From a virus (lineage: Duplodnaviria > Caudoviricetes): a DNA stretch of 64,000 nt. The translations under genes and the position numbers were made by a program. This document shows positions 7,983 to 47,371 of this stretch, in pieces (within the stretch, counting starts at the first letter, position 1; every line of letters starts with the position of its first letter). The notes beneath the pieces were generated by a model. The model was not told the DNA's origin. It saw only the letters and a program-made list of their open reading frames with translations, and did not search any database. Location: the IMG/VR virus record IMGVR_UViG_3300017913_001781, positions 32,001 through 96,000 of that record. One strand, written 5' to 3'.

Positions 7983-8825
7983 ATGAGTAAAATCAGAAGC
8001 GGCAACGATAGTGGCTTAAATACTCCTAAAAACTTTGGTGAAGATTGTCAAGATCTATTTTTAGATGAAATAGCCGATGAGCTTACAGGAGCATGTATGA
8101 TTCCTGTTAACCTTCCTAAGAAGGAGGTTTTAAACATTATAAAAAGAGCGGTTAAGTGGTTCTATAAGAATTACGAATACTCTGTTAAAGAAAACTATTA
8201 TCACATTCCTAATAGCGTATTTAGTACTGACTATTTTAAATCTCATAGGGCTTTACATTTACCACAAGCCACTGGCGATGGTTCTGGTATGGTATTCTCT
8301 GTTTATGGCTTATATGACTTAGCGAGCGGTTGGAATCAGCCAGGTGGGGGCTTAGATTTAAGATTCGAAAGCGGATCTGACTTTGCGTTAGAAAGAATGT
8401 TGTTTAGAAACGTGTACGACGGCGACGGAGCTGCTAGAGGCGCAGAGGAGTTACAGTATTACGTAATTAACCAATCCATGGTGGATCTATCTAGGCAGAT
8501 CATGGAGAACCCGATTTCGTTTCATTTCTCGCAATTGACAGGTGAGCTTAAGTTTATGGGTGATACACCCAAGGGAGATGTCATACTTGAAGTTTATGAG
8601 ACTATTCCTAATTGTGCACTCTACTCCGATGAGATATTCTTTAGGTATGTTTCGGCTAAAGTTAAAATATCATTAGGTTCTAAATTAGGCGTTTTTAAAT
8701 TTGCACTGCCGGGTAATGTAGAATTTGATTATTCGGAAATAAAGTCTATGGGTGAAGAAGAACTTTCAACAGTAATAGAAGAAATAAAAGGAGACGAAGG
8801 CGTTGATTGGATGATGCATTCATAA
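7983..8825 (+). CDS. Neck protein, T4 gp13-like
   Basis: 'IPVNLPKKEVLNIIKRAVKWFY' and 'LGVFKFALPGNVEFD..I...GEEEL' resemble gp13 N- and C-termini. Confidence 0.7.
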   Translation: MSKIRSGNDSGLNTPKNFGEDCQDLFLDEIADELTGACMIPVNLPKKEVLNIIKRAVKWFYKNYEYSVKENYYHIPNSVFSTDYFKSHRALHLPQATGDGSGMVFSVYGLYDLASGWNQPGGGLDLRFESGSDFALERMLFRNVYDGDGAARGAEELQYYVINQSMVDLSRQIMENPISFHFSQLTGELKFMGDTPKGDVILEVYETIPNCALYSDEIFFRYVSAKVKISLGSKLGVFKFALPGNVEFDYSEIKSMGEEELSTVIEEIKGDEGVDWMMHS

Positions 8826-8853
8826 GCTAAACAAAAAGTTGAATAGATACTAG

Positions 8854-9210
8854 ATGGAACTCTATATTAAGACAATTGGTGACCCTAACTTTGACTCGTT
8901 TAAGGTACAAAGTAATAGCGAGCTAGCACAGCTTATGACTCAAATAGAGACCATACTTTTTACAAACAAACGAGAGGTTTTAGGAAAACCTCAATTTGGA
9001 TGCAACCTTGAAGATTTAGTCTATTCTCTTAATTATAACAATAATCAGATCAAAGAAACTATAGATGAGCAAATTGCAATGTTTTGTCCTCTTGCCCAAA
9101 AATACAATGTATCAGCTGAAGTCTCTTTTGTAAAAGGTACAGCAAGAGACATAGCTTACATAGATATAACTATAGATTCTAAATACCTATTACAGGTCTA
9201 TATAAATTAA
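8854..9210 (+). CDS. Baseplate wedge protein, gp25-like
   Basis: 'IETILFTNKREVLGKPQFGCNLEDLVY' GPW/gp25 signature; precedes the gp6-like gene. Confidence 0.85.
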   Translation: MELYIKTIGDPNFDSFKVQSNSELAQLMTQIETILFTNKREVLGKPQFGCNLEDLVYSLNYNNNQIKETIDEQIAMFCPLAQKYNVSAEVSFVKGTARDIAYIDITIDSKYLLQVYIN

Positions 9211-9223
9211 ACATAACTTTATA

Positions 9224-20841: not shown

Positions 20842-20894
20842 GGGGAGTAGATATATACTAGGAGATTAGTATATTAAAATATCCTATTTATAAA

Positions 20895-23800: not shown

Positions 23801-26800
23801 TTTGCAATTTGAAGAAGATTATCAATATGGTACTAGGTTTAACAATTCTAAGTTATATGATGAAAACTTTAGAATATTTGCTCCTATCCAAATAGACACG
23901 AATATACCTAAAACGTTTGTTATTTATAGAGTTAATTCTCCTAAACCAAATGTAAACTATGGGGATTTAGGTGCTGATAAGCAAGATAGAATTAAATCTG
24001 TGCTAGCTAATGCAACTATAATTAAGACGTTTGATTTAAGTGAATCTTCTAAATTAGGTAAATATATTAGACGTCATGTTTATAATGAATTTTTTCAAGA
24101 TAGCCAACTAACAGTTTCCTTTGAGAAGAATGAACAGACATTCTTTAAGGGAATAGATTTAGTAAAAGGAGGATTCTCAAGTAAAGGCGAATTTATCTAC
24201 AAGGATTTTGTAGCTACTGATAAACCTTTGATAGAAGCTAACGACTTTATTACAGATGGATTTAAGAGAAACAGAATAGTATCTTCTAATATTTTAAATC
24301 TAGAATTTATGTTTGATGATGAGGAAGCTAGTGAATATTCTGTAAGTCGTTATTTTGGATTATTTGTAGATGAAATACCTTCAGGTAAAGGTAAGATTCA
24401 AAGAGTTAATTCAGGCTTAATTAAGTTTAAAGACTTAACATCTTTTATGCATTACAATGATAGTGGTTCTAGTTCTTCGTTGATTGATGGTAATACATTT
24501 GCTATACCTTCTAGTCAAATGATGAGAGATATTCCTGTTTTAGGTTACGTAAAGTGCGATACACACTACCATAATATTAAAAACGGAAGCGAGTGGAGTG
24601 CTGAAAATTATACGTTAAAAATTAATGATAACGGGGATGATATTAATAGGTTTACAGGCATTAAAGATACTTTAACCACCGTAGAACTAGAAGAAAACGC
24701 GGGAGTAGGATATGATTTTGTTAAACTATCTGTTGTTGATATACCATTTAATGGGGATTCTATATCGGTAATAGAAAATAAAAGACAATCATATTGCATA
24801 AGAGTAATTAACCACGTCCCTGGTTCCAATATGACGATAACTGCATCGTATCCAACTCAAACTACTGTGCAAATAAGTTCTGGTGCTACCAAAGAGGAGG
24901 CTTTAGATAATTTAGAAAATCAGTTATCTATATCTGGTCTATCGGTAGAAAGAGAAGGCGATGTTATTTTCGTAAAAGAAGTGCATGCTTATTTTAATGA
25001 CATTAATTTAGAAGTTTCTTCATCTAACCCAGCTCAAGTTATTAAAGTTGAGAAGAACTATACTAGTTCTAATTTACTTGAAAATTTAATTACGGCTAAT
25101 TCAGCAATTGACAAAGGAAGATGTACTGATAGAGAATTTTCTAATCAAGGTAATATTAAAGATGTAGTTGTAGCATTGGCCGGCGCGATATCTAAACAAG
25201 AAGGCATCCAAACTATTGTCAATAATAAAGACATATATGTTTACTCAAATAGAAATATAGGTTACGCTAGATATCAGCACGCTATATTAGTAAGTAAGTC
25301 TAATGTAGTTGATTTTGTTTCTTCTTTAAATACAGACGAGTCTAATGATTTAAAAATTGCACAAGCCGTTTTAAACGATTGGAACGCATACTATTTAATA
25401 GGAGGCCATTCTGACGGTAGATCTGTACTAATATCTAACGATTCAATCGGCGGTTTAAATATAGGAGATTACATAGATAGCAAAAAAACTGCAGGTTATA
25501 ATAAAGTTTTAGACATAGTAGAAAACCTAGAAGACGTTACTTCTAATTATAGTAAAGTTGTATTAACCACTAGACATGATTTAGGTAAAGGAGAGTTTAA
25601 AGTATTTAGAGAGTTTGAAGCAGAAATAGGATTATTTTCAGCCTATGATATTTATGATATGAATTTTGATTTTTATGATACTTCTAATTCAGATCTTAAA
25701 GAACTTAAGTATGAGACTTATCAAAATACAAACTATACTCCGGCGAATCAAGCCATATTTAATGCTGAAGAGGGCCAAGAGGAAGAAGCTTTAGACGGCA
25801 TAATAGATCCAGATTATATTAAAGATCCTGCACTTTTCTTTGCAGGTTTAAATCCTATTCTATATCCTGAAACACCAGAAGAGCAAGTCATCTCTAAAAT
25901 AGATTCAGAATATGACCGATTACAAGAAAATGGTCTAAAAGAATTTGCAGTTGAATCTAGAGTGGTTCCAAATATTAACAAGTGGGTTTTAAAAGATGCT
26001 AAGACAGTTAGAGACAATCCATATTATTTAAATGTAAATGAGGCTTTTGGTAGAACCAATTTCTCACCCGATATTACAGTAGAAGGTAAAGATCCAAAGT
26101 CATTTACACACGAATGGTTCTATATTGTTAATAAGCCCGACTATCTAAAACATTTTATGTTGAATGATACTTTTAGTTATATTAATTATATCTCAGGATT
26201 TGAACTAACCAAAGACATGTTTAAATCAATAGAAGAAGATTATTTTACCAACTTTATGGTAAGTGATGGATTTGATGTTAGCATAGATCCTGACGAACAG
26301 CAAATTTACGTTGTTACTATTTCTGAGGATTCAAATAATGGCTATGTTGTTTACATAAATGGAGAAGCTGGTTCTACGTTAAATATGATTACAAATAATA
26401 CGTACTATTTTGATCTAAGTAATGTAGATCCTGCTCTATTTTCTATCGAAGACTCAGTGGGAATGTATCAACAAGAAAATATAGGAGGTATAGAATTTGG
26501 AGTTTATACACCTGATACATATGGATTTTTTGAGTTTACATATGGTTCATCTCAGGGTGGCAATATTTCAGTATCTAATCAAGACTTTAATAAATTTGAA
26601 GCTTTTGTAAAAACTAATAGAAACATTAAATATTCTATAGGTAATGGAGGAAATGATAGATCTTTTGCTTCTACTATATTTAAGGGTTTGAAATTTGAAT
26701 TTAAGAATAGAAAGGAGTTTGATAAGATTAAGCCATCTGAATTTTTAAAGGATGGAACTTTTAATGATTATAAGTTTTCTACGGTAGTTGATTATAAAAC

Positions 26801-28661
26801 CGGTCAAAATAGAAACTCAATCGATTATGAAGTCATTAAAAACGATGCTTTTAAATTTATTATTTTCTATATAACAGTTAATTTAGATGAAGATTATGTA
26901 GGAAATACATTAAATAGAAAGCTTTCATACCTTCTTTCAAATCAGTTAAATTTACAAGAAGATGGTGAATACGATGTTGATGACGTTAGAATATCCGGTG
27001 CTTTAGATTTAAGTAACATTGATTCTAATTCTCCAGGACCATATATCGTTAATGGTATAACTCATTTTGACGGTTCAGAACCCAATTTCTTAACACAAAT
27101 ATCTCCAAACTCTGATAACACATACGGACCCCTTAGTATAGATTATCAAATACTAGACGAGGACGGTAATCCTTTAATTTATCAAATACAAATAGTCAGT
27201 GTTATTTCAGATTCTCAATTGGTTATTGAAGGTTTACCGTTTAATGAAAACGGTGAAACTATAGATCCGGTCTATTTGCCACTTTCTTTACAAGAATTTG
27301 CTGAATATGTATATATGGGAGGTGGAGTAAATAATCATAGCTTACTACTAAATAACATATCGATTAACAATATAGTTAATTTAATTAATGAAAATGATCC
27401 TTCTATAAAATATACAACAGTTACCAAAGAGGGAGAAATTCAATCTAATAGATTTGTTATGTCTATTGATGATGGTAATGAAATAGTAAGAGCATCTAAT
27501 TTAATAGCGGCGGCAGATAACAATAAACCTAAAAGCTATTCTTTATTTAACGGAACTATAGGATATGAATTACAGACAAGAAATTCATACTATCCATTCT
27601 TAATTAGACATTCTGGCAATTACGTATGTGATTTAAAACCAGTAGTAACATTTACTGATGTCTACTCTCATTTTAAAGTTAATAGAAACTATGCAAAGAA
27701 TTCTTTCTTAGAAGAAAGAAACTTTAAAGATAAGTTCTATAGACACCCGTCTTCATATATTGACGAAAGCTTTTATAAAAGGGTTCATAGAGCTGAGTCT
27801 TATTATATCAAATACAATAGAACTAATGTCGCATTTAATCTTGGATTTATATCTGATGATGGTAGGCATGATTCAAATTGGGGAATGATAAAAAATCACT
27901 TTTATCACAAAGTAAACGAAGATAATTCAACAGGAGTTACAAAATTAAGTGAAAGTGGTGAAGCCTCTCCACTTTATCCTCTCATAGGGGAAATAGCGAT
28001 TGATAAACGAGACGTAAACGTATTTAGGTCTTCTTGGGAGGATGATTATTATAGAACCGCATTAGCTGGAGGGGAATCTTCTTCTTCGCCTGGAACTTTC
28101 TCTACTAAAGAGTCTAGATCTTATTTGTCTTCTACTGTGATGAAACTTAGAGAATCATATACTCTAACTTCATTTACTACTCAAAACGCAGGTACCTTTG
28201 AGAACTTAGATTTAATATTAAAGAATAATTCTCATGAAGCTAATGTGGTATTTGCTGAAGATTCAGAAAGAGTGTACATTGATTTTTATATGACAGATTT
28301 AATATCAGATGTTCTTTCTGTATCTGGCGTTGCTAATGAAATTCAAAAATATGTAGATGCTGCATCTTCATTCCAAGATAAAACAGATTTAACTGATGAC
28401 GTCAAGTCATATGTTAATACTAATTTAGTCAATTTATTTACAGTAGATGAAGTAGAAATATATACTAGACGATCGCAAAGCGAGTCTACATCTATTAATC
28501 CAGTTGAATCATTAGATCTTATAGATAACGGTGGATTTAAATTAGACATAAATTACACTATTAACCAACATGCTCAAAGGCCTATCAATTTTAGATTGAT
28601 ATATAATAAGAGCCAGGGATACTCTTATATTATAAGACCTATGATAAAAATAAAGCAATAA
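20895..28661 (+). CDS. Giant virion/tail-associated protein with N-terminal repeat region
   Basis: 2588 aa uninterrupted ORF; GATATATA upstream. Confidence 0.65.
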   Translation: MAADAIFFIKSIQLYYKEHDGLSLFQGDADQLPTSVGPLTFYYTVEADQDIQPGDNNCGINYFTRPGFFQHPGGVLELPSPLDADLSTGGPGCSNPRWSIAQIAPLGIKLYSDNQLQNEAAPGKYSANPFPVTNFDPADNEDSIVYSYDPPASVTLHNTNYIWETYSFTNFEGDEVNALQTRLISPVNPVLVNFTGTAGQVYRKVLGVQGDSPCNFSTGAIPAFNVSYFPTEEVPAGATLAEIAAGGIPLMDSNGDIFTFGYFSDQQFPSTSNDVNIYKADGLINDYIVNWQASVCTQVVAPNETVREFTVDFANEVEAVEFNSNQFGDFVENSLFCSNAQPLRVFYTNNNTEYDTFFDLVVANEPIYVTPNTLPSNIVPEYWQLINAPEGSYGVTLNSYFFYILEEIDNNLSAGFDGPGWYRIYPGSNNITFYVPAGLGAADSSGFNCALPGRDSNNIKTITLNYSNSQQGYCEINSSNLSNNQVTCQYYSINGQDLTLNEIIQNQIYLYKDSLEYAAYYQIDDLLFTSGYFGDEFGFYYNFNSNIAEEGGNPWRGREFITISDSYSSPFMCTGNGTEIRSFDDLIYVSGIWTQIYPDYDFSDEFCYRQKQSYYVVYYRTHTESPEFTLDEIVQRDIPLYRTPTELTNGQSLKTGAYSSDTDYYYKWVANEDETGGHWMGLNSSQTESQAFITNSIQCNLQPVPNYFDTLNDNTLTENSGADYLLAFYVFSSCIPVNGQYTHYLLFGEHTNLPDDNTSYMSEFTDVIGFNSAFYSLGSTDLNYGCKKYVGKIFASSPSQAEELMSSQLDYFQGDIQFVSPSAIGLFSEELILWYPNGCNDCLNQLDFPGLPERLDKFDDGGQIEDLAPRFGLEQNYNLHNNSKPLLRTNPRLTGNIKLVTDSRGEIYLESINANKDLSDSRYKRYGVSSESDYSYDVSRFFNDNKTPYDMVYETKRRASDLSVLESYDLQFEEDYQYGTRFNNSKLYDENFRIFAPIQIDTNIPKTFVIYRVNSPKPNVNYGDLGADKQDRIKSVLANATIIKTFDLSESSKLGKYIRRHVYNEFFQDSQLTVSFEKNEQTFFKGIDLVKGGFSSKGEFIYKDFVATDKPLIEANDFITDGFKRNRIVSSNILNLEFMFDDEEASEYSVSRYFGLFVDEIPSGKGKIQRVNSGLIKFKDLTSFMHYNDSGSSSSLIDGNTFAIPSSQMMRDIPVLGYVKCDTHYHNIKNGSEWSAENYTLKINDNGDDINRFTGIKDTLTTVELEENAGVGYDFVKLSVVDIPFNGDSISVIENKRQSYCIRVINHVPGSNMTITASYPTQTTVQISSGATKEEALDNLENQLSISGLSVEREGDVIFVKEVHAYFNDINLEVSSSNPAQVIKVEKNYTSSNLLENLITANSAIDKGRCTDREFSNQGNIKDVVVALAGAISKQEGIQTIVNNKDIYVYSNRNIGYARYQHAILVSKSNVVDFVSSLNTDESNDLKIAQAVLNDWNAYYLIGGHSDGRSVLISNDSIGGLNIGDYIDSKKTAGYNKVLDIVENLEDVTSNYSKVVLTTRHDLGKGEFKVFREFEAEIGLFSAYDIYDMNFDFYDTSNSDLKELKYETYQNTNYTPANQAIFNAEEGQEEEALDGIIDPDYIKDPALFFAGLNPILYPETPEEQVISKIDSEYDRLQENGLKEFAVESRVVPNINKWVLKDAKTVRDNPYYLNVNEAFGRTNFSPDITVEGKDPKSFTHEWFYIVNKPDYLKHFMLNDTFSYINYISGFELTKDMFKSIEEDYFTNFMVSDGFDVSIDPDEQQIYVVTISEDSNNGYVVYINGEAGSTLNMITNNTYYFDLSNVDPALFSIEDSVGMYQQENIGGIEFGVYTPDTYGFFEFTYGSSQGGNISVSNQDFNKFEAFVKTNRNIKYSIGNGGNDRSFASTIFKGLKFEFKNRKEFDKIKPSEFLKDGTFNDYKFSTVVDYKTGQNRNSIDYEVIKNDAFKFIIFYITVNLDEDYVGNTLNRKLSYLLSNQLNLQEDGEYDVDDVRISGALDLSNIDSNSPGPYIVNGITHFDGSEPNFLTQISPNSDNTYGPLSIDYQILDEDGNPLIYQIQIVSVISDSQLVIEGLPFNENGETIDPVYLPLSLQEFAEYVYMGGGVNNHSLLLNNISINNIVNLINENDPSIKYTTVTKEGEIQSNRFVMSIDDGNEIVRASNLIAAADNNKPKSYSLFNGTIGYELQTRNSYYPFLIRHSGNYVCDLKPVVTFTDVYSHFKVNRNYAKNSFLEERNFKDKFYRHPSSYIDESFYKRVHRAESYYIKYNRTNVAFNLGFISDDGRHDSNWGMIKNHFYHKVNEDNSTGVTKLSESGEASPLYPLIGEIAIDKRDVNVFRSSWEDDYYRTALAGGESSSSPGTFSTKESRSYLSSTVMKLRESYTLTSFTTQNAGTFENLDLILKNNSHEANVVFAEDSERVYIDFYMTDLISDVLSVSGVANEIQKYVDAASSFQDKTDLTDDVKSYVNTNLVNLFTVDEVEIYTRRSQSESTSINPVESLDLIDNGGFKLDINYTINQHAQRPINFRLIYNKSQGYSYIIRPMIKIKQ

Positions 28662-33722: not shown

Positions 33723-34273
33723 TGATTCTAAATTCTAGAAATAATTTATTCTCATTTAGGTTTCCAAGAAACTTTATACCCGAGGAGGTAGCTAATAAAT
33801 ATGTTAAGTATTTAAATAGAATGCCGGGTAATCTAATGCAAAGACCCGTTGATTTCGTTAATTATTCTATTCAAGGCATTAATGTTCCGGGTGTTTCATT
33901 TGATCCTATTTCACAAGCTGATAATGACGGAACAACTAGATATCACAGAGGTGCAGTTCCCATTCAAAATACAGTAGAGCGACAATTTACAGTTACTATG
34001 CAACTTTTAGATGGTTACATTAATTATTGGATAATGTTAGATACCTTGCTTTACTATTATGCAAGATCAACCGAGCAACCATTTACTGAGAATCTAGTTA
34101 TGAGAATCATGGATGCTGAAGGAATAGGTATGGCTTCTATGGTTTTTGAACAACCTATCATGAACTCAATTAACGAGCTTAACCTAAACTTTGCCGAAAA
34201 TGTTGCCGAATTTAGTACGTTTGAAGTCACATTCTACTATAACAAACTCAACCTAAAGATAGAAATAGATTAA
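33722..34273 (+). CDS. Tail tube-fold protein (gp19/gp3-like)
   Basis: 'NYSIQGINVPGVSF', 'FTVTMQL', 'FSTFEVTFYY' tube-fold pattern. Confidence 0.6.
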   Translation: MILNSRNNLFSFRFPRNFIPEEVANKYVKYLNRMPGNLMQRPVDFVNYSIQGINVPGVSFDPISQADNDGTTRYHRGAVPIQNTVERQFTVTMQLLDGYINYWIMLDTLLYYYARSTEQPFTENLVMRIMDAEGIGMASMVFEQPIMNSINELNLNFAENVAEFSTFEVTFYYNKLNLKIEID

Positions 34274-34283
34274 TATATAAGAT

Positions 34284-34652
34284 ATGAAAACATTTTTAGA
34301 ATATCTAAACGAGCAAGACATTTCAGAAAAAGATCTTCTTATTTTAAACGAAGGTCTTCAAAGCGAGTGGACCGATGAATTAGAAGCTAAAGTCGATGAA
34401 GCTATAAATGCATTTGCGTCTGAATACATGCTAGAAGACGGAACTTATGATATCGATAGATTCAATGAAGAAATGACCAATGAAGGTATATTGGGTAGTA
34501 TTATAGGTGGTCTTACTGGTTTTGCTCTAGGTAAATCAGTTGGTAAATTAATAGCTAAAGTTTTAGGTGTACAAAAGGGTGTATTATATGACCTTCTGAC
34601 TTCAAGATTAGTTGGCGCAGCTTTAGGAGCTTCTCTGGGAAAAAGATTTTAA
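34284..34652 (+). CDS. Putative capsid-internal protein: acidic pro-region plus glycine-zipper amphipathic C-terminus
   Basis: Starts MKTFLEYLNE (like the T4 capsid targeting sequence); C-terminus GILGSIIGGLTGFALG... Confidence 0.55.
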   Translation: MKTFLEYLNEQDISEKDLLILNEGLQSEWTDELEAKVDEAINAFASEYMLEDGTYDIDRFNEEMTNEGILGSIIGGLTGFALGKSVGKLIAKVLGVQKGVLYDLLTSRLVGAALGASLGKRF

Positions 34653-34653
34653 A

Positions 34654-35304
34654 GTGAATTACGTAGCAGTAGACTTTTCTCTTAACTCTCCTGGCATTTG
34701 CATTTACAATGACAAGAGTAAAAAGTACCAATTTATAAGTTATATTAAAACAAAAACGGGTACAAAGGCCGAACAAGCTTTTCAAGAAGACATATCTAAA
34801 CTTAAGGATGTGGCCTTAATTTATCAACCTGACTTTACAACAAGCGATGCTTACTCAAGCCAAGAGTTGAATAAAATTAAAAGATATGATAAGATGGCAG
34901 ATGATATTGTCAATCTTATATTACAAGAGTCTCAGCAAGGAGACGGTTATACTATAGCATTTGAGGGTACAAGCTATGGTTCAAAAATGGGAACTAATAA
35001 TATGATTGATATGGCAGCCGGCGCTGCAATCTTAAAACTAAAAATGTTAAAGATCTTTAAACCTGAAGATATTCAAACAATTGCTCCAACTACAATCAAG
35101 AAATTTGCAGGTAAAGGTAATATGAATAAATTACAATTATGTCAGGCCTTTTTAGATAATGTAAATGGAGATCCATTTTTAATGAAGGGAGAATTATTTC
35201 ATTTTGTTACTAATAACATAACCATTGAAAAGAAAATTCCAAAGCCATTAGATGACCTTATTGATGCTTATTTTCTTTCAGCTCTTTTGGCATCAAAAGC
35301 TTAA
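34654..35304 (+). CDS. RuvC-like Holliday junction resolvase
   Basis: 'AVDFSLNSPG', 'IAFEGTSYG', 'APTTIKKFAGKGNMNK', 'DDLIDAY'; GTG start. Confidence 0.85.
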   Translation: MNYVAVDFSLNSPGICIYNDKSKKYQFISYIKTKTGTKAEQAFQEDISKLKDVALIYQPDFTTSDAYSSQELNKIKRYDKMADDIVNLILQESQQGDGYTIAFEGTSYGSKMGTNNMIDMAAGAAILKLKMLKIFKPEDIQTIAPTTIKKFAGKGNMNKLQLCQAFLDNVNGDPFLMKGELFHFVTNNITIEKKIPKPLDDLIDAYFLSALLASKA

Positions 35305-38319: not shown

Positions 38320-39828
38320 GTGGAACTTAGCTTAACAGAAAATAATCAGTTTCTAAGAGTAGATTCAGCGACAGAGTTAGAAATAGAACAACTCAACATC
38401 TCACTTACTAAGAGAATAGAATCATGGCGATTCAATCCTTTGGTCAAGCGAGGTGTCTGGGATGGTTACGTCTCGTATATTAAAGATGACAAATGGATTC
38501 CTTCTGGTTTATGGAAAGAAATTATGGATACGTGTAAGGAGTATTCATATGACCTTAAATTAAACGGAGTCACTGATCTTTTTGATAAAAGCGTTAACCA
38601 AGAAGAATTTGAAGCTTGGGCTTTAGACTTCTTTAAAGACTCTGAGATTACGCCACGCGACTATCAAATGGATGCAGCTTTTAACATCTTAAAGTTTAGA
38701 AGATGTTTGGCAGAATTAGCTACCTCAGCAGGTAAGACTCTTATTTCTTTCTTAGTAGTAGCATATATGCTTGAAAAGAAAAAGGCCAATAAGGTCTTAT
38801 TTATAGTACCTAACGTTTCACTTGTAGTTCAAGCTACTGAAGACTTTATGGACTATAACTATAAGAATCAGGTTAGTATTAAGATTCAACAAATCTACTC
38901 AGGCCAAAAGATTAGAGCTGGCCGTAATGTTGTTATTGGAACGTATCAATCTCTTGTTAAAAAGAACAAAGAGTATTTCGAGCAGTTTGATGCTGTTATC
39001 ATTGACGAGACACATAAGGCTAAGTCTAATTCTATTAAGACTATCTTGCAGAAGTGTGTATCGGCTAAGTATCGTTTTGGTTTGTCAGGAACTATTCCTA
39101 AAAGAGGTAAGTTAGACAGACTCACTTTGATGGCTTACACCGGTCCTGTTATTACAGAAGTCAGTGCTAATTTCTTGCAAAAACAAGGACATATTGCCGG
39201 TTGCAAAGTTAAAGTCATTGAAATGGATTATGCGCCAGATTCTACGAAACAAGCTTTCATGGAAATGGCAATGAACAAATACGAAAGCAAAGACGTATTT
39301 AAATTTGAACAAAACTACGTAATAAATTCCCCCGGTAGACTAAACTTTATTACGAATGTCATATCTAAAATTCCCCGAAATTCCCTTGTCTTGTTTCATC
39401 GCATCGAACATGGTAAAAAGCTTTATGAGAAGCTCAGACAGGATAGCGATAAGGTTGTCTATTATGTAGATGGAGGTACTGATAAGGACATAAGAGAAGA
39501 ATACAAGAAAAAGATGGAAGCCGGTGAAGAAGTAGTAATTGTAGCTTCATACGGCACTTTCTCTACTGGAATTTCTATTAAGAAAATACACAACATTTTC
39601 TTCACAGAATCATTCAAATCCGAGGTCATTATTAGACAATCTATTGGTCGTGGACTTAGACAACATAAATCAAAAGAAGAAGTTATTATTGTAGACTTTG
39701 TTGATGATTTATCTTCTCCAGAGTGGTTCAATTACTTAATGAGACATGCTAATGCGAGGCAGCGTATTTACAAGGAACAGAAGTTTAGCTATAGCGTGAA
39801 AAAGGTTCAATTTGAAGGAGATATATAG
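38320..39828 (+). CDS. uvsW: SF2 DNA helicase UvsW
   Basis: 'PRDYQ', 'ATSAGKT', 'DETH', 'GLSGT', 'QSIGRGLR'. Confidence 0.93.
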   Translation: MELSLTENNQFLRVDSATELEIEQLNISLTKRIESWRFNPLVKRGVWDGYVSYIKDDKWIPSGLWKEIMDTCKEYSYDLKLNGVTDLFDKSVNQEEFEAWALDFFKDSEITPRDYQMDAAFNILKFRRCLAELATSAGKTLISFLVVAYMLEKKKANKVLFIVPNVSLVVQATEDFMDYNYKNQVSIKIQQIYSGQKIRAGRNVVIGTYQSLVKKNKEYFEQFDAVIIDETHKAKSNSIKTILQKCVSAKYRFGLSGTIPKRGKLDRLTLMAYTGPVITEVSANFLQKQGHIAGCKVKVIEMDYAPDSTKQAFMEMAMNKYESKDVFKFEQNYVINSPGRLNFITNVISKIPRNSLVLFHRIEHGKKLYEKLRQDSDKVVYYVDGGTDKDIREEYKKKMEAGEEVVIVASYGTFSTGISIKKIHNIFFTESFKSEVIIRQSIGRGLRQHKSKEEVIIVDFVDDLSSPEWFNYLMRHANARQRIYKEQKFSYSVKKVQFEGDI

Positions 39829-39852: not shown

Positions 39853-40482
39853 ATGAATAAATTACAAGACTTTAATAGCTTTGCTTCTGCTAAAAGACAA
39901 GAGGCTCAAATCAAGTTAGAGCAAGAGCAAGAAGCGAAAAGAACATCTAGTGCCGAAACATTTAAATCTCTTTTAGCAGAATACGGCGTAACAGATCTTA
40001 ATGAATTAGATGAAGAACAAAAAACTTCTTTCTTTTTAAAGTTAAGAGGCGGAGAAGTAAACGAGGACGTTAACTATATGATTGATAGATTAGAAGAGGC
40101 ATATTCAGTTACTGAAGCTGAAGTTAAGTCTGAAGAAGAGTTTCAAGAATATGCAATGACTGTCTTGAAAAAAGCATTTGGTGAAGATTTTGATGAAGCT
40201 AAAGCACAAGAAACTATCGATGGTATTCTTGGTAAGGCAAAAGGAGACTATGGTGCAGCTATAGGTATGCTAACATCTTCTTTAGGAGAATCAGTAAAGG
40301 TCAATGAATCCGATATTAAATCAGACGAAGATTTTAAAGAGTATGCATTCTCAGTTCTTCAAAAAGCATTTGGAGACGAGTTTGACGAAGCAAAGGCTCA
40401 AGAAGTAGTAGACGGAATTCTATCTAAAGCCGGCGGTGATTATGGTGAAGCTGCGGGTATGCTACAAAGCTCACTTGGATAA
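39853..40482 (+). CDS. Putative capsid-internal/core protein with a duplicated ~57-aa helical domain
   Basis: Acidic; repeats at about 40117-40286 and 40309-40479; each preceded by V-x-E. Confidence 0.55.
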   Translation: MNKLQDFNSFASAKRQEAQIKLEQEQEAKRTSSAETFKSLLAEYGVTDLNELDEEQKTSFFLKLRGGEVNEDVNYMIDRLEEAYSVTEAEVKSEEEFQEYAMTVLKKAFGEDFDEAKAQETIDGILGKAKGDYGAAIGMLTSSLGESVKVNESDIKSDEDFKEYAFSVLQKAFGDEFDEAKAQEVVDGILSKAGGDYGEAAGMLQSSLG

Positions 40483-41771
40483 TGAATAAAATCCTATTAT
40501 ATAGAGATTTTTTAAATGAAAGAGCGCAGCCCATAGACATGGGCTATTCTCTTGTTATGGAGGGCGGTGCAGCTGGTCATATGAATCATCCATTTGATGA
40601 TAAGTCTTTAACTTTTGGAGACTTTAAAAAGATTGTAGAATACGGTCTTAGAGGAGAACTTAATTTCGAAGAAGCTGCTACTGAAAAAACAGATGGACAA
40701 AACGTATTTGCCACTATTCAAGATGGTGAGGTAAAGTTCGCTAGAAACAAGACAGAACTAATCACGCCAATGGACTTGAATACATTTAAGCAAAAATTTG
40801 ATAACCATGCAAGCGCTATGGTTGAAGAGACTTTTAAGTTGGCCGCTGAAGATTTAGCATCTCAGTTAATGAAATTACCAAATAATGTTCAAGAAGAAAC
40901 ATTTGAAAATGGACTTAATTGGATGAATATGGAATTGATCTATTCTAGAAACCCAAATGTTATTTATTATGACAGAGATGTAATTCAATTCCATGGTATC
41001 AAGAAGACTGATGGTCAAGGTAATATTATCGGAGAAGATAATAAACCAGCATCTTCATTAGTTAAAGCATTGGCAGCAGTTAAAGCGAATGTTGGTAAAA
41101 CATTTACAATAATTCCCCCACAAATCATTAAGCTTGGTAAAGACATAGATTTTGAAACCAATAGAACTAAATTCTTAAAACAAATTGAAGTACTTAGAAA
41201 TAAGTATAATTTAACCGATGCTGATGAAGTATCGCGTTATCATGAGATGTGGTGGAGAGATCAAATTGAAGAAACTTTTGGCGAATTAACACAAGACCAT
41301 AAAGAAGGGCTTTTACTAAGATGGGCTTATGGTGATAAAAAGACTCTTAACCTAAGACAGCTTAAGAAAGAGGTTACTTCAGACCAAATGGATGCTATTA
41401 AAAAATATGATAAAGAAGACGTTAAGAAAAAGTACAAAGAAAACATTAGACCATTTGAAGATTTATTCCTAGAATTGGGTTCTATTATTCTTAAGAACGC
41501 CTCTAACTTTGTCGCTGCTAATCCAAGCGCAGAAATGCAAAGATTACATAATCAAATTAGAACAGAAGCTGAAAAAATTAAAAAAGGAGGCGACGTTAAT
41601 CAAATTAAAAAGGTTGAAGCAGAGCTTGCAAGATTAGAAAGAATCGGAGGAGTAGAATCTATTATGCCAACCGAGGGTATAGTATTCGTGTATAAAGGTA
41701 AAACATTTAAGCTTACTGGAACTTTCGCTGCTATAAATCAACTTATGGGAATTATAAAATACGGCAGATAA
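40482..41771 (+). CDS. RNA-ligase/capping-fold nucleotidyltransferase-like protein (DUF6267-like)
   Basis: 'EGGAAGHMNHP'; motif I 'TEKTDG', Ia 'ARNK', III 'NMEL', IV 'EGIV', V 'FKLTG'. Confidence 0.7.
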   Translation: MNKILLYRDFLNERAQPIDMGYSLVMEGGAAGHMNHPFDDKSLTFGDFKKIVEYGLRGELNFEEAATEKTDGQNVFATIQDGEVKFARNKTELITPMDLNTFKQKFDNHASAMVEETFKLAAEDLASQLMKLPNNVQEETFENGLNWMNMELIYSRNPNVIYYDRDVIQFHGIKKTDGQGNIIGEDNKPASSLVKALAAVKANVGKTFTIIPPQIIKLGKDIDFETNRTKFLKQIEVLRNKYNLTDADEVSRYHEMWWRDQIEETFGELTQDHKEGLLLRWAYGDKKTLNLRQLKKEVTSDQMDAIKKYDKEDVKKKYKENIRPFEDLFLELGSIILKNASNFVAANPSAEMQRLHNQIRTEAEKIKKGGDVNQIKKVEAELARLERIGGVESIMPTEGIVFVYKGKTFKLTGTFAAINQLMGIIKYGR

Positions 41772-43612
41772 TGGCACTTCAAGATCTAAGAAAACATTTT
41801 AATTCAGTTAATAGAAACGAGTTTATGGCTTTGTTAAAGCAAAGATGCTTGGTTACTGAAAAAATTCAAGCTTCTTCCTTTCATGTTAGAAATACAGATA
41901 AAGGCTATGACTACTATAAAAGCGGTTCTAAAACACCTATGAATAGGGTTGATAGAACAATAGTTAGGTATTATGAAAGTGCTATTGACTATTTTAGATC
42001 TATTCCTAAAGAAGTTAGAGAAGATATGCCAAAGGATTGGAAATTTGGTTTTGATTACATGACTGAAAAAAGAACAGTTGATATTCAATACGATGCTCTT
42101 CCCAAAAACAATCTTATATTAACACATATTCAAGTTTTAAATCCAACTGACCCAACTCAAATTAAGAAAGTAATTAGAGACCCTAAAGTTCTTGAAAAAT
42201 GGTCTAATATGTTACAAGTTCAGGCTCCTCCTATATTATTCAACGGAGTTTTAGATTCTAATCAAAAAGACATGTTAGTTGAGCTTTTAGAAATGAATAA
42301 TGAATCATTTAAGAACGTATTTGAAAATACTTCCTTTACTAGAAAGGTCTATAGTATTTTTAATCACATGGCAAATAAGACCGCTCTCAATGAAGGTTTA
42401 GATGGAGATATAGATTCGCTTATAGTTTCTTTTATAGACAAAAAGAATATTAAGAACTTTAAACTTGGTAGATTTGATAAAGTTGAAGAAAAAGAAAGAG
42501 AAGCTTCCGACATGTATCAAATTACTATTCTAGATCTTGTCGAGTATATGACTCAGTTCAATATGGATGATGTAAAATTGGTAGAAGAAGATACAGACTT
42601 AAGATACATTGAGCTAGTTTCAGAGATATTTAATCAATATATGTCTAAGAACGCCGTCAAGTATATAGGCGCTGAGTTTGATTCGGCGGGTTTTTCTAGT
42701 AGAAAGGGATTTGAACTCAATAAAGACTTTATCAAAAACGAAGGCACGGTAAAGCTAATTCAAAACGAAGATTTATCGGAATTATTTAAGATTATGTTGG
42801 GATCATTTAGAAAAAAAAGAACAAAAGAAACCAAGATCATAAATGCCGACCTTATGTCTCAAATGAACGAAATTGTAGAAAAGATAGAGTCCGCCGTCTT
42901 TGCAAAAAAGAATGAATCAGAGATTATGACATTTAATACTTACTTAAAGCAAGAAAAGCTAAAAACCCAAGTTAGTCCAATTATTGAAGCGCTAACAGTC
43001 GAACATCCTGATCAGGGGGCAAAGCCGGTTAATATGTTTGTTGGTAGATTCCAACCTTTTACATTAGGACACGCTAAAGTTATAGACGCTATTCATAAAC
43101 AAAACGGTTATCCCGTTGTTATTTTCTTAGTTAAGTCAAAGACTAAGAAAAAAGAGGATGCATTTAAAAGACCCTATTCTGAAGAACTACAAATTGAAAT
43201 GTTGGAAAAACTAAAAAAGAAGTATCCAATTGAAGAGGTATTTGTTATACCTTCTGCAGCCATCGACAAAATGTTTAATGAAATGAGACCTAAATATGAA
43301 CCGGTTCTTTGGGGAACTGGAACTGATAGATTAAAGGTTTATAGCTATCAAGTAGATAAGCAAGAATATAGAGATGATTTAGGCGTCAGAGATGATTTTG
43401 GACTGTTCGAGATACCAAGAACTGGTAAGAATATTTCAGCAACTCAAGTTAGAAATGCAATGTTAGCTGGAGATGAAAAAGAGTTTAAGAAGCTAACACC
43501 GAGGGAGATTCATTCGATGTATTTAAAACTTAAAGATACGTTAGAGCAATCAATGGCAACAATGGAGTCCACGTCAAACATTATGACTTTCAATCAGTTC
43601 TTAAAATCCTAA
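41771..43612 (+). CDS. Degenerate ligase-fold domain fused to an HxGH-class nucleotidyltransferase (cytidylyl/NMN-adenylyltransferase-like)
   Basis: N-terminal 'TEKIQAS'; C-terminal 'GRFQPFTLGH', 'GTDR', 'ISATQVR'. Confidence 0.75.
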   Translation: MALQDLRKHFNSVNRNEFMALLKQRCLVTEKIQASSFHVRNTDKGYDYYKSGSKTPMNRVDRTIVRYYESAIDYFRSIPKEVREDMPKDWKFGFDYMTEKRTVDIQYDALPKNNLILTHIQVLNPTDPTQIKKVIRDPKVLEKWSNMLQVQAPPILFNGVLDSNQKDMLVELLEMNNESFKNVFENTSFTRKVYSIFNHMANKTALNEGLDGDIDSLIVSFIDKKNIKNFKLGRFDKVEEKEREASDMYQITILDLVEYMTQFNMDDVKLVEEDTDLRYIELVSEIFNQYMSKNAVKYIGAEFDSAGFSSRKGFELNKDFIKNEGTVKLIQNEDLSELFKIMLGSFRKKRTKETKIINADLMSQMNEIVEKIESAVFAKKNESEIMTFNTYLKQEKLKTQVSPIIEALTVEHPDQGAKPVNMFVGRFQPFTLGHAKVIDAIHKQNGYPVVIFLVKSKTKKKEDAFKRPYSEELQIEMLEKLKKKYPIEEVFVIPSAAIDKMFNEMRPKYEPVLWGTGTDRLKVYSYQVDKQEYRDDLGVRDDFGLFEIPRTGKNISATQVRNAMLAGDEKEFKKLTPREIHSMYLKLKDTLEQSMATMESTSNIMTFNQFLKS

Positions 43613-43643
43613 TATATAGAAAAAGAAAATAAACTACATAAAT

Positions 43644-46139
43644 ATGAAATTCCAAGATTTCCTAAATGAAAAGAAAGTAACGTTAAAGAGACGTTACACT
43701 GAAAATCATCCAGCGATGGAAGCTGGTTTAACGGCAAGAGTCAGAAACAAAATGATAGAAGCGGTTGCTGATGGCACGTTAACTCAAGAAGAGTTTAATT
43801 CTATTTTATCTGAATTAAGCAATGATTCTAAAAGATGGATGACCAGAAATGCAAAATACTTTAATGTATCAGAAGACGGTATCACATTATCTAGATTTGG
43901 TAAAAGAGTTCTTAAAACATTTGCAATTAATGAAAATGAAGGCTTTATTTTAGAATCTACGCGTTCTCAAATTGGTATCATTGATAGAAGAGGCGTTATT
44001 CACTCTACATATGTTCATAGCGATGGTTATCCAGAAGGTGTAGGCCAAATGGCAAAAGATCATTTTTCTGACACTAAAAAGATGAAAGAACTATTAAAAC
44101 TTGGAAAGAATGGTATTTCATATTTAGAGCCTGGTATTGAAGGTGGTGAAGGACACCACTTTAATACACCAATCGATGGTCAAACAGTATTTTATGGTAG
44201 AGATAGAGGCGAAACTAAATACAATATGACTCAAAAAAGAAAGTTAGAAGATCTAGATGATTATCTACAAGATGTTGCCTTTGATGGTGCAGAATATGTT
44301 TATCTTTGGGATGAAAAAGAAAAAGAGTGGAAGTACGCAGTTGCTAAAACTAAAGACGGTAGACAAATGGGTCTTCAAGTCCTAGAGTCTGAGTTAATAG
44401 AAGATGATGTTATAGAAGAAGGTAAATATGAAGATATGTTAGATAAAGGAGATGGACATATTCACTTTATTTTAAAGGATGAAAAGACTGCTGAAAAATT
44501 AGCTGATAAAATTGAAGAGGAAGGTTTAGGTGATTGTGATTTTTATCCTCAAGGTAAAAAGATTTACTTAAGAGTTTCTTTAACAGGGCAGGAAAATAAA
44601 GCAAATTCTAATATACCTAAGATAGAAAAGATTGTAGGTATGAAAGCTAAGTCTGGCTCACCAGAAACATGGGATGGTTCTATGTTGGGTGAAGGTAGAA
44701 ACGCATTTATTACTGCAGCTAGAGCAGCTAAAGCAGAAGGTTTAAAAGAATTTGAATTTAAGGGTAAAACCTTTCCGGTTACAGTAAAAGATGTAAGTGA
44801 GGAAGCTCCCGAAGTAGAAGAAACAAAAGAAGTTACAGAAAATAAATTAGTCTCAGAATCATTTGGAAAGTTTATTGCTTCTCTAAATGAAGAAAATGTT
44901 AATGAATGGGGAACTTCTGATAGCTATGCTATGAGTGAAGTAATTCACTATATGATTAGAAAGCCTAAAAACATGCCATCTCCGTTTGATAAAAAACTAA
45001 GAGATGCGGCTGAAAGTGCAGTTGATAGATATTGGGATGAGTGGCCTGAATACAAAACCAATTATGAAGGTTTAGTAGACGACGCCGTTAGAACTTATTT
45101 AAGACATTTTCATAGAGAAGAGTTTAAATTGGCCCAAAGAATGTTTGAGCCAGTAGAGTCAAATTCTATTGAAGTAGGAGAGGACGTTAACGAGGCATTT
45201 AAGTCAGCCAAATTAGCTCAACTTTTTAATACTAAAATATCTCGCAGTTGGTCTTCTAGCTCATTAAAGGACTTACCTAAAGCTTTTTATAACATGGCTA
45301 ATATTGCTTTAGATAAAGTAGAGGATGAAGATATAATTGATATGAGTGCAGCTGAAGCGCATGCTATAACTAGAAAGGACAAAGATAATCGCTATGTTAT
45401 ATTTTACGTAGTAGATCAACAAAAAGAAAATCCGCATGCTGGTTACGAAGGGCAAAAAACTATCCCAGCTGGTATTTTGGCTATTGTTAAGGGTAATCAA
45501 TTTCAAGGCATGGCATGGGGCCGTAATTCATCCGGCCACGGCCGAACTTTAGCATCTAGCGAACCTGGTGATAGCGTAGGTATTAGTAAAAAGTATAAAG
45601 GCTGGGATTCAACGGGCCTTTACAATCCTAAGAGAATTTCAGAGGTTGCAGATAGAGCAGTTGTCTTAGATACTGCGGTACTTAGAGATAAGTATTCAAC
45701 TGCTGGAAAGATGGCTGATAGAGCAGCCGCTAAGAAAGGTGCAATCGCTTTTAAATCAGATAAAGATTTCAAAAGAGAAAATATGAAGCGATATAAAGAG
45801 ATCTTAGCAGACAAAGCAGCTAACTTACCTCTAGATAAAATGGTTAAGGACGCGGTAGATGCTTTAACTTTACAAATTCAACAGGGTCTAGCTAAAGGTG
45901 AAGTCGAAAATGGAGAGCCCTTAATCGGTAGAAATTCAAAGGGTAGAGCAGTAAAAATGAGAGACGCCGCTAATCATATGTCTCAGATTTTAGATAATTA
46001 CTCAAACTATGTGAGATATTCTAATGAAGCTCAAAGCGGTCTTATTGGATCTAGCTATTACGAAACAAGAGTTAAGGACGAAGCCAAGCTTATCAAAGAC
46101 AGAATTGATAAAATTGAAAATATGGACTATGCCTGGTAA
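43644..46139 (+). CDS. Multi-domain putative capsid-internal polyprotein
   Basis: Starts MKFQDFLNE; modules separated by acidic [ILV]-x-E linkers; contains a 'STRSQIG...YVHSDGYPEGVG' domain. Confidence 0.6.
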   Translation: MKFQDFLNEKKVTLKRRYTENHPAMEAGLTARVRNKMIEAVADGTLTQEEFNSILSELSNDSKRWMTRNAKYFNVSEDGITLSRFGKRVLKTFAINENEGFILESTRSQIGIIDRRGVIHSTYVHSDGYPEGVGQMAKDHFSDTKKMKELLKLGKNGISYLEPGIEGGEGHHFNTPIDGQTVFYGRDRGETKYNMTQKRKLEDLDDYLQDVAFDGAEYVYLWDEKEKEWKYAVAKTKDGRQMGLQVLESELIEDDVIEEGKYEDMLDKGDGHIHFILKDEKTAEKLADKIEEEGLGDCDFYPQGKKIYLRVSLTGQENKANSNIPKIEKIVGMKAKSGSPETWDGSMLGEGRNAFITAARAAKAEGLKEFEFKGKTFPVTVKDVSEEAPEVEETKEVTENKLVSESFGKFIASLNEENVNEWGTSDSYAMSEVIHYMIRKPKNMPSPFDKKLRDAAESAVDRYWDEWPEYKTNYEGLVDDAVRTYLRHFHREEFKLAQRMFEPVESNSIEVGEDVNEAFKSAKLAQLFNTKISRSWSSSSLKDLPKAFYNMANIALDKVEDEDIIDMSAAEAHAITRKDKDNRYVIFYVVDQQKENPHAGYEGQKTIPAGILAIVKGNQFQGMAWGRNSSGHGRTLASSEPGDSVGISKKYKGWDSTGLYNPKRISEVADRAVVLDTAVLRDKYSTAGKMADRAAAKKGAIAFKSDKDFKRENMKRYKEILADKAANLPLDKMVKDAVDALTLQIQQGLAKGEVENGEPLIGRNSKGRAVKMRDAANHMSQILDNYSNYVRYSNEAQSGLIGSSYYETRVKDEAKLIKDRIDKIENMDYAW

Positions 46140-46197
46140 AATTAAAAAAGTATTTTGGGAATATTGGATAAAACCATGGCACCCCATTTCAAATTAA
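46129..46197 (+). CDS. Candidate 22-aa Trp-rich micropeptide MPGKIKKVFWEYWIKPWHPISN
   Basis: Fills the intergenic gap, overlapping the upstream stop and ending 4 nt before the next ATG. Confidence 0.3.
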   Translation: MPGKIKKVFWEYWIKPWHPISN

Positions 46198-46201
46198 TAT
46201 T

Positions 46202-47371
46202 ATGCCCGCTCTTAGTAAAGTACAACAAAGATTAATGGGAATGGCTTACGCTTATAAGAAGGGTGAGCTTGACTCTAAAGATGCTAGTCAAGAGGTTAAA
46301 GATCTCGCAGATTCTATGACTCTTAAGCAGCTTAAGAAATTTGCTGCAACTAAACACGAAGGTTTACCAGAAAGAGTACCTGAAAATATTCAAGCCGGTC
46401 AAATTAATGGCATGGGTCCAATACAATTACCCGCTGACGGTTTACTTGGATCTGGAGATGTACCTGCTGGTAGGGGCGACGCAGAAGAAGAATATAAAAA
46501 AAAGAAAAAGAAGATGGCAAACTTCGAAGAATTTATAAATGGGTTAAATACTCAACCCAAATCAGGTGTTAATGAAACTAGATTTTACGCAATATTTCAA
46601 GGCGCAAAGCATGAAATTGAAGCAGATAGTCTATGGGCTGCAAAGCAAAAGGCTATCACAGATCTAAAGGTCAAAAAGAAAGATGTTGGATTATTGGCGA
46701 TTGTAAATGCAGACGAACATGATGATTTTTCTAAGGGAAAGAAGGGACAATTCCAATTTGAGTCTGATCAAGTCGACGAAGTTTATACCGGAACCGCATC
46801 TGATTTTAAATATGAATTTCCAAACCAATTTGAAGATGTCACGGGTTTTTCTGATAAAGCCATTAAAGGTATTAGAAAGAAAGGTAAAAATGGCTACGAA
46901 GTTAGAACTTCTACATATGCCGGTAAAGAATATATGGAAGCTGTTGGTAAACAAATGGGTCTAGAACTTAAAAAGTTTGAGAAGCATAGTAATATGTGCA
47001 TCACTGTTTATGAATCTGTTATCTCTGAAATCAGAACGTCTAGTTGGGGAGATTTAGAATATACAGAAGAAGATGTCAATAAAACTCACGGATGGTGTGG
47101 CACTTTAGCTAACGAATTAGGTGAAGATAAAGCTATGTTTTTAACTCATCAAGGAATTCATGACCTTCAAAAAAGACACATGGGTTTAACAGCTTGGGAA
47201 GCTTTAGCTGTTCTTAATTCAAAAGCAGGTAGACATGCGGCTGAAGCCTTTTTAGGAGGAGAAGCTGCCGCATCTGATACTACTTCAGCATTGATTTGGT
47301 ACTTTGGTAGTAAAAGAAAGGTACAGCAAGCTGCTAAAGAAGAAGCAGAGCTTCAATTTCCAAGTAAGTAA
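46202..47371 (+). CDS. Multi-domain putative capsid-internal polyprotein with DUF3008-like N-terminus
   Basis: 'MPALSKVQQRLMGMA..KKGE...LKKFAATKHEGLPERV'; internal MANFEEFIN; modules after VNE, VDE and ISE. Confidence 0.6.
   Translation: MPALSKVQQRLMGMAYAYKKGELDSKDASQEVKDLADSMTLKQLKKFAATKHEGLPERVPENIQAGQINGMGPIQLPADGLLGSGDVPAGRGDAEEEYKKKKKKMANFEEFINGLNTQPKSGVNETRFYAIFQGAKHEIEADSLWAAKQKAITDLKVKKKDVGLLAIVNADEHDDFSKGKKGQFQFESDQVDEVYTGTASDFKYEFPNQFEDVTGFSDKAIKGIRKKGKNGYEVRTSTYAGKEYMEAVGKQMGLELKKFEKHSNMCITVYESVISEIRTSSWGDLEYTEEDVNKTHGWCGTLANELGEDKAMFLTHQGIHDLQKRHMGLTAWEALAVLNSKAGRHAAEAFLGGEAAASDTTSALIWYFGSKRKVQQAAKEEAELQFPSK

Follow-up and report, generated by a model that had tools for sequence, protein, structure and literature searches.

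Candidate capsid-targeted cargo proteins and modular polyproteins bearing a T4-type tag in an uncultured marine phage

The present analysis concerns a 64,000-nt stretch of viral DNA, referred to as the window, which corresponds to bases 32001-96000 of a 122,950-bp viral contig; coordinates refer to the window unless they are marked as contig positions. The contig is about 41% complete according to CheckV, carries nearly all of its genes on the + strand and originates from a large, uncultured, marine T4-like phage. For its major capsid protein (MCP), the best matches come from huge phages that are likewise uncultured, where a 462-kb record gives 50% identity, and more distant relatives are found in Lak phages, Tenacibaculum jumbo phages and T4-like cyanophages. 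The locus of interest is a block of five genes at 39853-47371, which encode proteins of 209, 429, 613, 831 and 389 amino acids and are located directly downstream of the genes for a single-stranded DNA-binding protein (SSB), a primase and a helicase. A sixth gene, which encodes a 122 amino acid protein and starts at position 34284, lies outside this block and was included as well. In these proteins a short peptide tag recurs that resembles the capsid targeting sequence (CTS) of the internal proteins of phage T4. By megablast, the block found no match among 50,697 phage records.

The 122 amino acid protein (34284-34652, + strand, like the five block genes and the promoter-like motif copies before these genes) begins with the leader MKTFLEYLNE (34284-34313) and contains a second LNE at residues 21-23. 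Its C-terminal half is hydrophobic and glycine-zipper-like, with Pfam glycine-zipper matches that are weak and below the cut-off, and the protein, if packaged, could be membrane-active at infection. Directly behind its gene, a RuvC-like Holliday junction resolvase is encoded at 34654-35304 (phrog_159, E = 2e-14). The first protein of the block (209 amino acids; 39853-40482) is acidic, begins with MNKLQDFNSFA (39853 onward) and contains [LV]NE at residues 49-51, 69-71 and 150-152, the third of which divides two tandem helical repeats of about 60 amino acids. It is followed by the 429 amino acid protein (40482-41771), whose leader MNKILLYRDFLNE (40482-40520) is predicted to be cut after E13 and whose body holds a KxDG-like string, EKTDGQ, reminiscent of motif I of covalent nucleotidyltransferases (ATP-dependent ligases and capping enzymes), a group otherwise recognised by motifs III-V and a ligase fold. 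This protein has no family match in Pfam or PHROGs and no sequence match to a PDB chain, and a protein-atlas search returned only viral clusters bearing DUF6267. The 613 amino acid protein (41771-43612) is a fusion. Its residues 1-385 belong to no recognised family; then follow an internal MTFNTYLKQE (42926-42955), a nucleotidyltransferase at about residues 419-580 and the C-terminal MTFNQFLKS (43583-43609), which nearly repeats the internal motif. Residues 422-562 match PF01467 with 40.2 bits against a cut-off of 21, and the HxGH-type motif is present as FTLGH, which defines a predicted cytidylyltransferase-like HxGH nucleotidyltransferase domain; sequence matches to NMN adenylyltransferases in the PDB are weak (E = 0.085-0.27). 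The idea that the 429 and 613 amino acid proteins are a paralogous pair of ligase and pseudo-ligase is not endorsed by their sequences, with a best BLASTP E-value of 0.083.

The 831 amino acid protein (43644-46139) is a polyprotein. Its leader MKFQDFLNE (43644-43670) is followed by the winged-helix-like module A (residues 10-99), the linker AINENEGFILE (43923-43955), module B (residues 105-245; phrog_1987), an acidic linker (44379-44426), modules C and D, the internal tag SESFGKFIASLNE (44853-44891), module E (residues 412-520) and, after the joint DVNE|AFKS near 45186-45194, module F (residues 523-831). The 389 amino acid polyprotein (46202-47371) starts with a DUF3008 domain at residues 3-59 (PF11450, 42.6 bits against a cut-off of 24), which is followed by a Gly/Pro linker, a poly-Lys stretch, the internal motif MANFEEFINGLN (46514-46549), a VNE|T joint at residues 123-125 and cassettes that are present or absent depending on the relative. 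An AlphaFold model of residues 1-260 of the 831 amino acid protein shows confident cores for modules A and B, whereas the predicted cleavage sites fall into three stretches of low pLDDT (residues 1-27, 94-103 and 250-260). The structure matches of module A are winged-helix DNA-binding-like and weak (probability 0.8-0.96, E about 0.2-0.4), and module B has no structural match. Module F is modelled with a pLDDT of 85; Foldseek found no PDB match at E <= 0.001, and VIA-align gave generic helical-bundle matches to the C-terminal half only (Z <= 9.2). Searches of the 429, 613 and 831 amino acid sequences against PDB chains yielded nothing below E = 0.03, and no peptidase family was detected in the five block proteins (Pfam E <= 0.1; PHROGs E <= 0.01).

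In T4, the CTS (MKTYQEFIAE) combines two functions: suppressor studies assigned residues 4 and 7 (Tyr, Phe) to targeting and residues 8 and 10 (Ile, Glu) to processing, and the prohead protease gp21 cuts after L/I-x-E. A preliminary description of this DNA likened the leaders to the T4 CTS, and the likeness holds for the same four functional positions at the same spacing. The eight motif strings that it quoted were all recovered in place. Its claim that the five block genes and the gene at 34284 all carry the motif needs to be narrowed: a full N-terminal tag is present in three of the six proteins, namely those of 122, 429 and 831 amino acids, one further leader is partial, and two proteins have internal or C-terminal copies only.

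For the whole contig, a strict tag was defined as [FY]-x-x-[FY]-[LIV]-x-E inside the first 20 residues. Seven proteins of the 123-kb contig carry it, compared with 0.31 expected from 500 composition-preserving shuffles, in which the maximum was 4. With a looser reading, about 15 of the 135 open reading frames (ORFs), or approximately one gene in nine, begin with a tag; examples from across the contig are MKYLKLYEQFL, MKYIKLYEEFV, MGILKYIDFLNE, MRYVGNFSNFLNE, MRYLDFNQFVNE, MKYLRLFEQFIKE and MKYVKLFEQFLIAE. The predicted cleavage half is enriched as well. [LIV]NE occurs 70 times genome-wide against 35 +/- 6 expected, a twofold excess, and the 209 amino acid (3 versus 0.14) and 831 amino acid (5 versus 0.66) proteins are among the most enriched. 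Codons vary from tag to tag within the genome, and it is therefore the peptide that is under selection and not a repeated DNA element. Two tagged genes in other parts of the contig encode an R2K ATP-grasp enzyme and a GNAT. For both types of enzyme a role in modifying the phage host has been proposed, for GNATs also as injected factors.

Conservation in relatives points in the same direction. Marine metagenomes contain more than 1,200 homologues of the 429 amino acid protein. Among the best 120, the pattern [FY]-x-x-F-[LIVM]-x-E is retained in 117, with its last residue at positions 12-15. The F and the E never change in these tags, the x positions drift freely, and the homologues are 73-95% identical. 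The five related contigs L002-L006 are syntenic with the block, yet whole cassettes differ between them. In the family of the 831 amino acid protein, whose members range from 698 to 956 amino acids, all indel breakpoints lie immediately behind acidic linkers with [LV]-N-E at their end, such as DVNE|AFKS or VNE|TRFY, and one of the inserted cassettes is homologous to part of the 389 amino acid protein. Cassette gains and losses in the family of the latter are bounded by VNE or VTE. The acidic linkers ending in [LIV]-x-E, which the preliminary description had noticed, are real features; they coincide both with low-confidence AlphaFold stretches and with cassette breakpoints in relatives.

The 613 amino acid protein gives a view of how such a joint may arise. 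In L005 and L006, the nucleotidyltransferase is encoded by a separate 199 amino acid gene that starts with MKHVKLFEQFINE or MKYLKLFETFINE, and the 426 amino acid remainder of the 613 amino acid homologue ends with MTFNQFV. Because the free transferase is itself tagged, the internal MTFNTYLKQE marks the fusion joint. The C-terminal MTFNQFLKS is a conserved feature of the N-terminal fusion partner, which is kept with or without the transferase inserted, and it may serve as a C-terminal targeting element. The same region of L005 and L006 (5196-6676 in both) contains two extra tagged genes, the free nucleotidyltransferase and a 293 amino acid protein that starts with MKHVKLFEQFLFE and has no homologue on the present contig. 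As judged from these comparisons, the block locus looks like a hot spot of cargo gene turnover.

An exhaustive profile search with the 831 amino acid protein retrieved 2,512 representative proteins (E <= 0.001), in which the modules occur at many positions. In 150 distant representatives, we determined how often a module start is preceded by [LIVMF]-x-E with 0-2 spacer residues. This was the case for 77 of the 83 internal copies of module A (93%), for all 24 of module B and for all 23 of module F, compared with a background of 7-9%. N-terminal module copies have a full tag instead (27 of 35 for module A and 4 of 4 for module F). Where an aromatic element is present at an internal joint, as in MKTKLVFESFGDFVN, it corresponds to SESFGKFIASLNE of the 831 amino acid protein and looks like a retained N-terminus, i.e. 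a fossil tag. A separate observation comes from a distant 9-kb viral contig (L009:1463-5984), where six small unrelated genes all start with MKH[IV]KL[FY]E.F and adjoin homologues of the 183 and 122 amino acid genes of the window.

A protease that could recognise these sites is encoded on the same contig. The gp21 homologue that the preliminary description proposed to look for was found; it belongs to the S77 family, and its catalytic His and Ser are present. The profile PF03420 (cut-off 27 bits) scores 48.8 and 46.2 bits, and phrog_207, annotated as 'head maturation protease', is matched at 1.9e-35. BLASTP against T4 gp21 gives 28% identity (E = 1e-12), and T4 His85 and Ser140 align with His and Ser. 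The protease forms the first approximately 190 residues of a 649 amino acid ORF located outside the window (contig 107213-109162, L011:8214-10163). The C-terminal extension of about 450 amino acids is lacking in T4 gp21, and the middle of the ORF consists of 10 tandem 14-residue repeats with the consensus I-Q-Y-x-E-[YHT]-[VLI]-A-E, also given as Y-x-x-[YHT]-[LIV]-[AK]-E or, in longer form, as I-Q-Y-x-E-H/Y-V-A-E-K-x-D-x-x. Each repeat resembles one capsid-targeting tag, so that the scaffold amounts to a chain of tag-like units joined to the protease. The genes in this region encode, in order, a DNA-end protector, the portal, a tagged 112 amino acid protein, the protease-scaffold, a tagged 138 amino acid protein, the MCP and a tagged 534 amino acid protein, which parallels the T4 gene order 20-67-68-21-22-23.

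Tagged genes and head genes also share a promoter-like motif. The motif GATATATA has 24 copies on the + strand and none on the - strand, and it is almost always located 12-50 nt before a start codon. Including its A-variant, [GA]ATATATA stands before most of the tagged genes and before the genes for terminase, portal, protease-scaffold, baseplate and fibre. Copies are found 12 nt upstream of the 122 amino acid gene (AATATATA, 34272-34279), 33 nt upstream of the 209 amino acid gene, within the end of the helicase gene (GATATATA, 39820-39827), and 33 nt upstream of the 831 amino acid gene (AATATATA, 43611-43618); a further example lies at 20850-20857. The position is conserved: before the 209 amino acid gene the motif occurs at -33 in all five relatives L002-L006, and before the 831 amino acid gene at -33 or -34. 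It is absent before the SSB, primase and helicase genes of these five contigs. A strict tag and a directly preceding motif are associated (odds ratio 6.4, p = 0.012), and the remaining tagged genes abut a motif-headed gene without a gap. We read the motif as a late-type promoter because it is associated with structural genes. The canonical T4 late promoter TATAAATA was considered as well; it occurs 8 times on the + strand, whereas about 16 copies are expected from base composition, and it does not precede tagged genes. In this lineage, its place as late promoter seems to have been taken by [GA]ATATATA. Several motif copies are located only 12 nt before the ATG and would give near-leaderless mRNAs. 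The motif is also found in front of a single 2,588 amino acid ORF in the tail/fibre region (20895-28661).

Taken together, these data make it probable that the tagged proteins are capsid-targeted cargo, which is processed by the prohead protease. It is also rather likely that the five block genes and the gene at 34284 belong to a genome-wide late set of genes for proteins carrying a T4-type CTS. The preliminary description had regarded the block itself as the cargo system. The block does represent one cluster of tagged genes, but it is not a special locus, as the set extends over the genome and comprises about 15 genes, including those of the prohead core. In the proposed pathway, the late-type [GA]ATATATA promoters would drive the tagged genes alongside those of the head, and the tag would dock the proteins onto the prohead core, i.e. 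the S77 protease fused to its tandem tag-like scaffold. After assembly of the shell, the protease would cut behind the Glu of each accessible [LIV]-x-E and remove the leaders, and the 831, 389, 209 and probably also the 613 amino acid proteins would be cut at their acidic linkers into separate domains. These domains would stay in the head with the DNA and would likely be released into the next host. Core binding, cleavage, retention, ejection and the role as cargo, including an anti-defence or takeover function, are steps that we infer from these features. The untagged 613 and 389 amino acid proteins may be loaded via their internal or C-terminal copy, via an internal start, or not at all.

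Several observations weigh against this interpretation. The proteins of 613 and 389 amino acids lack a canonical N-terminal tag and have copies only internally or at the C-terminus, and the leader of the 209 amino acid protein has the aromatic pair but not the cleavage half [LIV]-x-E, which is in any case a short and common motif. Internal aromatic copies occur in the block proteins at about the number expected by chance, and only 14% of the internal joints in the distant representatives have a full aromatic element, compared with a background of 6.7%. A position-specific scoring matrix (PSSM), built from the tags outside the block and the scaffold repeats, recovered held-out N-terminal tags at modest rank only (1-9 chance matches are expected at their scores), and the internal copies were not recovered when this genome alone was scanned, partly because scaffold-specific residues dominate the matrix. 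Support for the internal copies thus comes from the comparison of families, and not from this genome alone. The joint statistic partly reflects shared ancestry within each module family; yet three unrelated modules obey one boundary rule. In addition, the late timing of the block is deduced from a motif that it shares with structural genes, and the putative ligase-like enzyme and the nucleotidyltransferase could equally be ordinary cytoplasmic proteins.

Three other explanations have to be considered. The proteins could be targeted and cut, but serve only during assembly as core or scaffold accessories similar to T4 gp67, gp68 and gp22, with fragments that exit before DNA packaging, so that nothing is delivered. 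T4 degrades these three proteins to peptides that leave the head, and in the present phage the tag also heads the small 112 and 138 amino acid proteins, which sit where T4 has gp67, gp68 and gp22; the acidic, repetitive, helical and site-rich 209 amino acid protein would fit such a role too. We nevertheless regard a purely assembly-related function as unlikely. Folded domains of 90-320 residues, modelled with confidence, are present in the block along with an intact HxGH nucleotidyltransferase, the tag elsewhere heads an ATP-grasp enzyme and a GNAT, which would hardly be kept just to be discarded, and the predicted sites cluster in linkers and not within domains.

Even less probable is that the leader is a non-capsid signal, for example for Hsp70/DnaJ docking, for degradation or localisation, or as a translation-start context, and that its likeness to the T4 CTS is convergent. 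Hsp70 client motifs are basic and hydrophobic, as is the leader MKYLKLFEQF..., and two tagged genes are flanked by DnaK-like and DnaJ-like genes outside the window (contig 8267-10123 and 12071-12895), which were assigned by their N-terminal sequence only. The copy without Glu at the C-terminus of the 613 amino acid protein is likewise not explained by a cleavage site; the T4 Alt protein, however, has propeptides at both ends, and a C-terminal copy therefore fits the capsid model too. A non-capsid signal leaves unexplained the tandem tag array on a gp21-type protease scaffold, the invariant Glu, whose spacing from the aromatic pair is constant in 117 of the 120 homologues, and the [LIV]-x-E joints of the modules, and the variation in codons speaks against a start context at the nucleotide level. 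Finally, the motif might have no signal function at all and be a by-product of composition and of the shared ancestry of a few duplicated genes. The genome is AT-rich, which favours Lys, Asn, Phe, Ile and Glu, a single ancestral N-terminus could have given rise to several of the tags (MKY[LIV]KLFEQF), and the internal copies are individually not significant. This explanation appears highly improbable, because the composition-preserving shuffles yield so few N-terminal matches (0.31 against 7 seen), because the tags are attached to unrelated bodies (ATP-grasp, GNAT, nucleotidyltransferase, winged-helix-like and uncharacterised folds) and because the tag is kept in more than 100 homologues at 73-95% identity while the x positions drift.

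Returning to capsid-targeted cargo as the preferred interpretation, a more far-reaching proposal can be made, albeit tentatively and with somewhat more doubt than confidence. The polyproteins may represent a very large class of modular cargo that has so far escaped description and comprises more than 2,500 representative clusters from marine T4-like and jumbo phages. Such proteins would have arisen when CTS-tagged genes fused in frame, which would account for the Met-containing fossil tags at the joints. In the prohead, the S77 protease would recut them to single domains. The tag would correspond to one repeat unit of the scaffold, and cargo would be loaded by scaffold mimicry.

So far, the T4 CTS has been studied almost only in T4 itself, as a feature of a few small internal proteins and as an engineering tool. 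Here, the same logic is seen in a distant marine lineage, on enzymes and on cassette polyproteins, the modules of which are found again in thousands of metagenomic proteins. Should packaging prove true, a simple sequence rule would define proteins that are delivered at infection, where anti-defence and takeover factors are expected. Packaging would also show how these repertoires change in evolution, by the fusion and exchange of tagged cassettes, and it would suggest that loading relies on a tag that copies a scaffold repeat, a principle that could be used for protein delivery. If the class of modular cargo proposed above exists, the tag together with the [LIV]-x-E joint would be a marker for listing the injected repertoire of uncultured phages straight from metagenomes.

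Among known systems, the closest parallel is provided by the CTS cargo of T4. Both have leaders 9-13 residues long, in which two aromatic residues with a spacing of three are followed by aliphatic-x-Glu. They also share a gp21-family protease, the T4-like order of the head genes, unrelated bodies behind a conserved leader and a locus that is highly variable among relatives. A further likeness concerns T4 gp23, which loses its first 65 residues at maturation. Residues 59-65 of gp23 read FGSFLTE (NC_000866, 12946-14511) and fit the full pattern of aromatic-x-x-aromatic-aliphatic-x-Glu, and not just L-x-E; a statement of this likeness to the CTS was not found in the reviews consulted. In contrast to T4, the tag of the present phage is spread over about 15 genes within 123 kb, among them genes for enzymes and for proteins as long as 831 amino acids, the residue before the Glu is mostly Asn, Lys or Thr instead of Ala, and packaging is a prediction. 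T4 Alt, a packaged ADP-ribosyltransferase that gp21 processes at both termini, offers with its C-terminal propeptide a precedent for the conserved MTFNQFLKS of the 613 amino acid protein; different from Alt, no ADP-ribosyltransferase domain was detected in the block, and the C-terminal copy has no Glu after the motif. In the Tenacibaculum phage PTm1, the nearest annotated cultured relative examined, the first 50 kb contain no tag family, with one weak regular-expression match in about 50 ORFs; by its MCP this phage is too distant to serve as a proxy.

Other phages package and process head proteins in different ways. The ejection and inner-body proteins of phiKZ, 201phi2-1 and SPN3US are processed by gp175 or gp245, distant homologues of gp21 with the specificity S/A-x-E. 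As in the model proposed here, many head proteins are cut after the Glu of a three-residue motif, often at several sites per propeptide, and the cargo mass is large; huge and jumbo phages are also the source of the nearest MCP relatives of the present phage. The phiKZ-like phages, however, have no defined short, transferable N-terminal leader, whereas the present one combines a T4-like [LIV]-x-E with an aromatic pair. The Dar system of P1 (DarA, DarB, Hdf, Ddr) is comparable in its ordered, signal-dependent loading of anti-restriction proteins into the head, with processing of some members, but lineage and signals are unrelated and no homology was detected. Polyvalent proteins (Iyer et al. 2017, PMC5512222) are similar in being large, in their shuffled unrelated domains, in their location near late genes and in the proposal that they are packaged and cut into units during or after delivery. 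Their processing has been attributed to a built-in zincin-like MPTase, which was not found in the five block proteins with Pfam or PHROGs; here, processing would be carried out by the prohead protease at regular linker sites, and the modules are, as far as checked, not families described in PMC5512222. Judged from sequence, three features thus appear to set the present system apart from the T4, phiKZ-like and polyvalent systems: the tag is placed on many enzymes and polyproteins, cleavage motifs and sometimes whole tags occur inside proteins at the cassette joints, and one protein combines the protease with a scaffold in which tag-like units are repeated in tandem.

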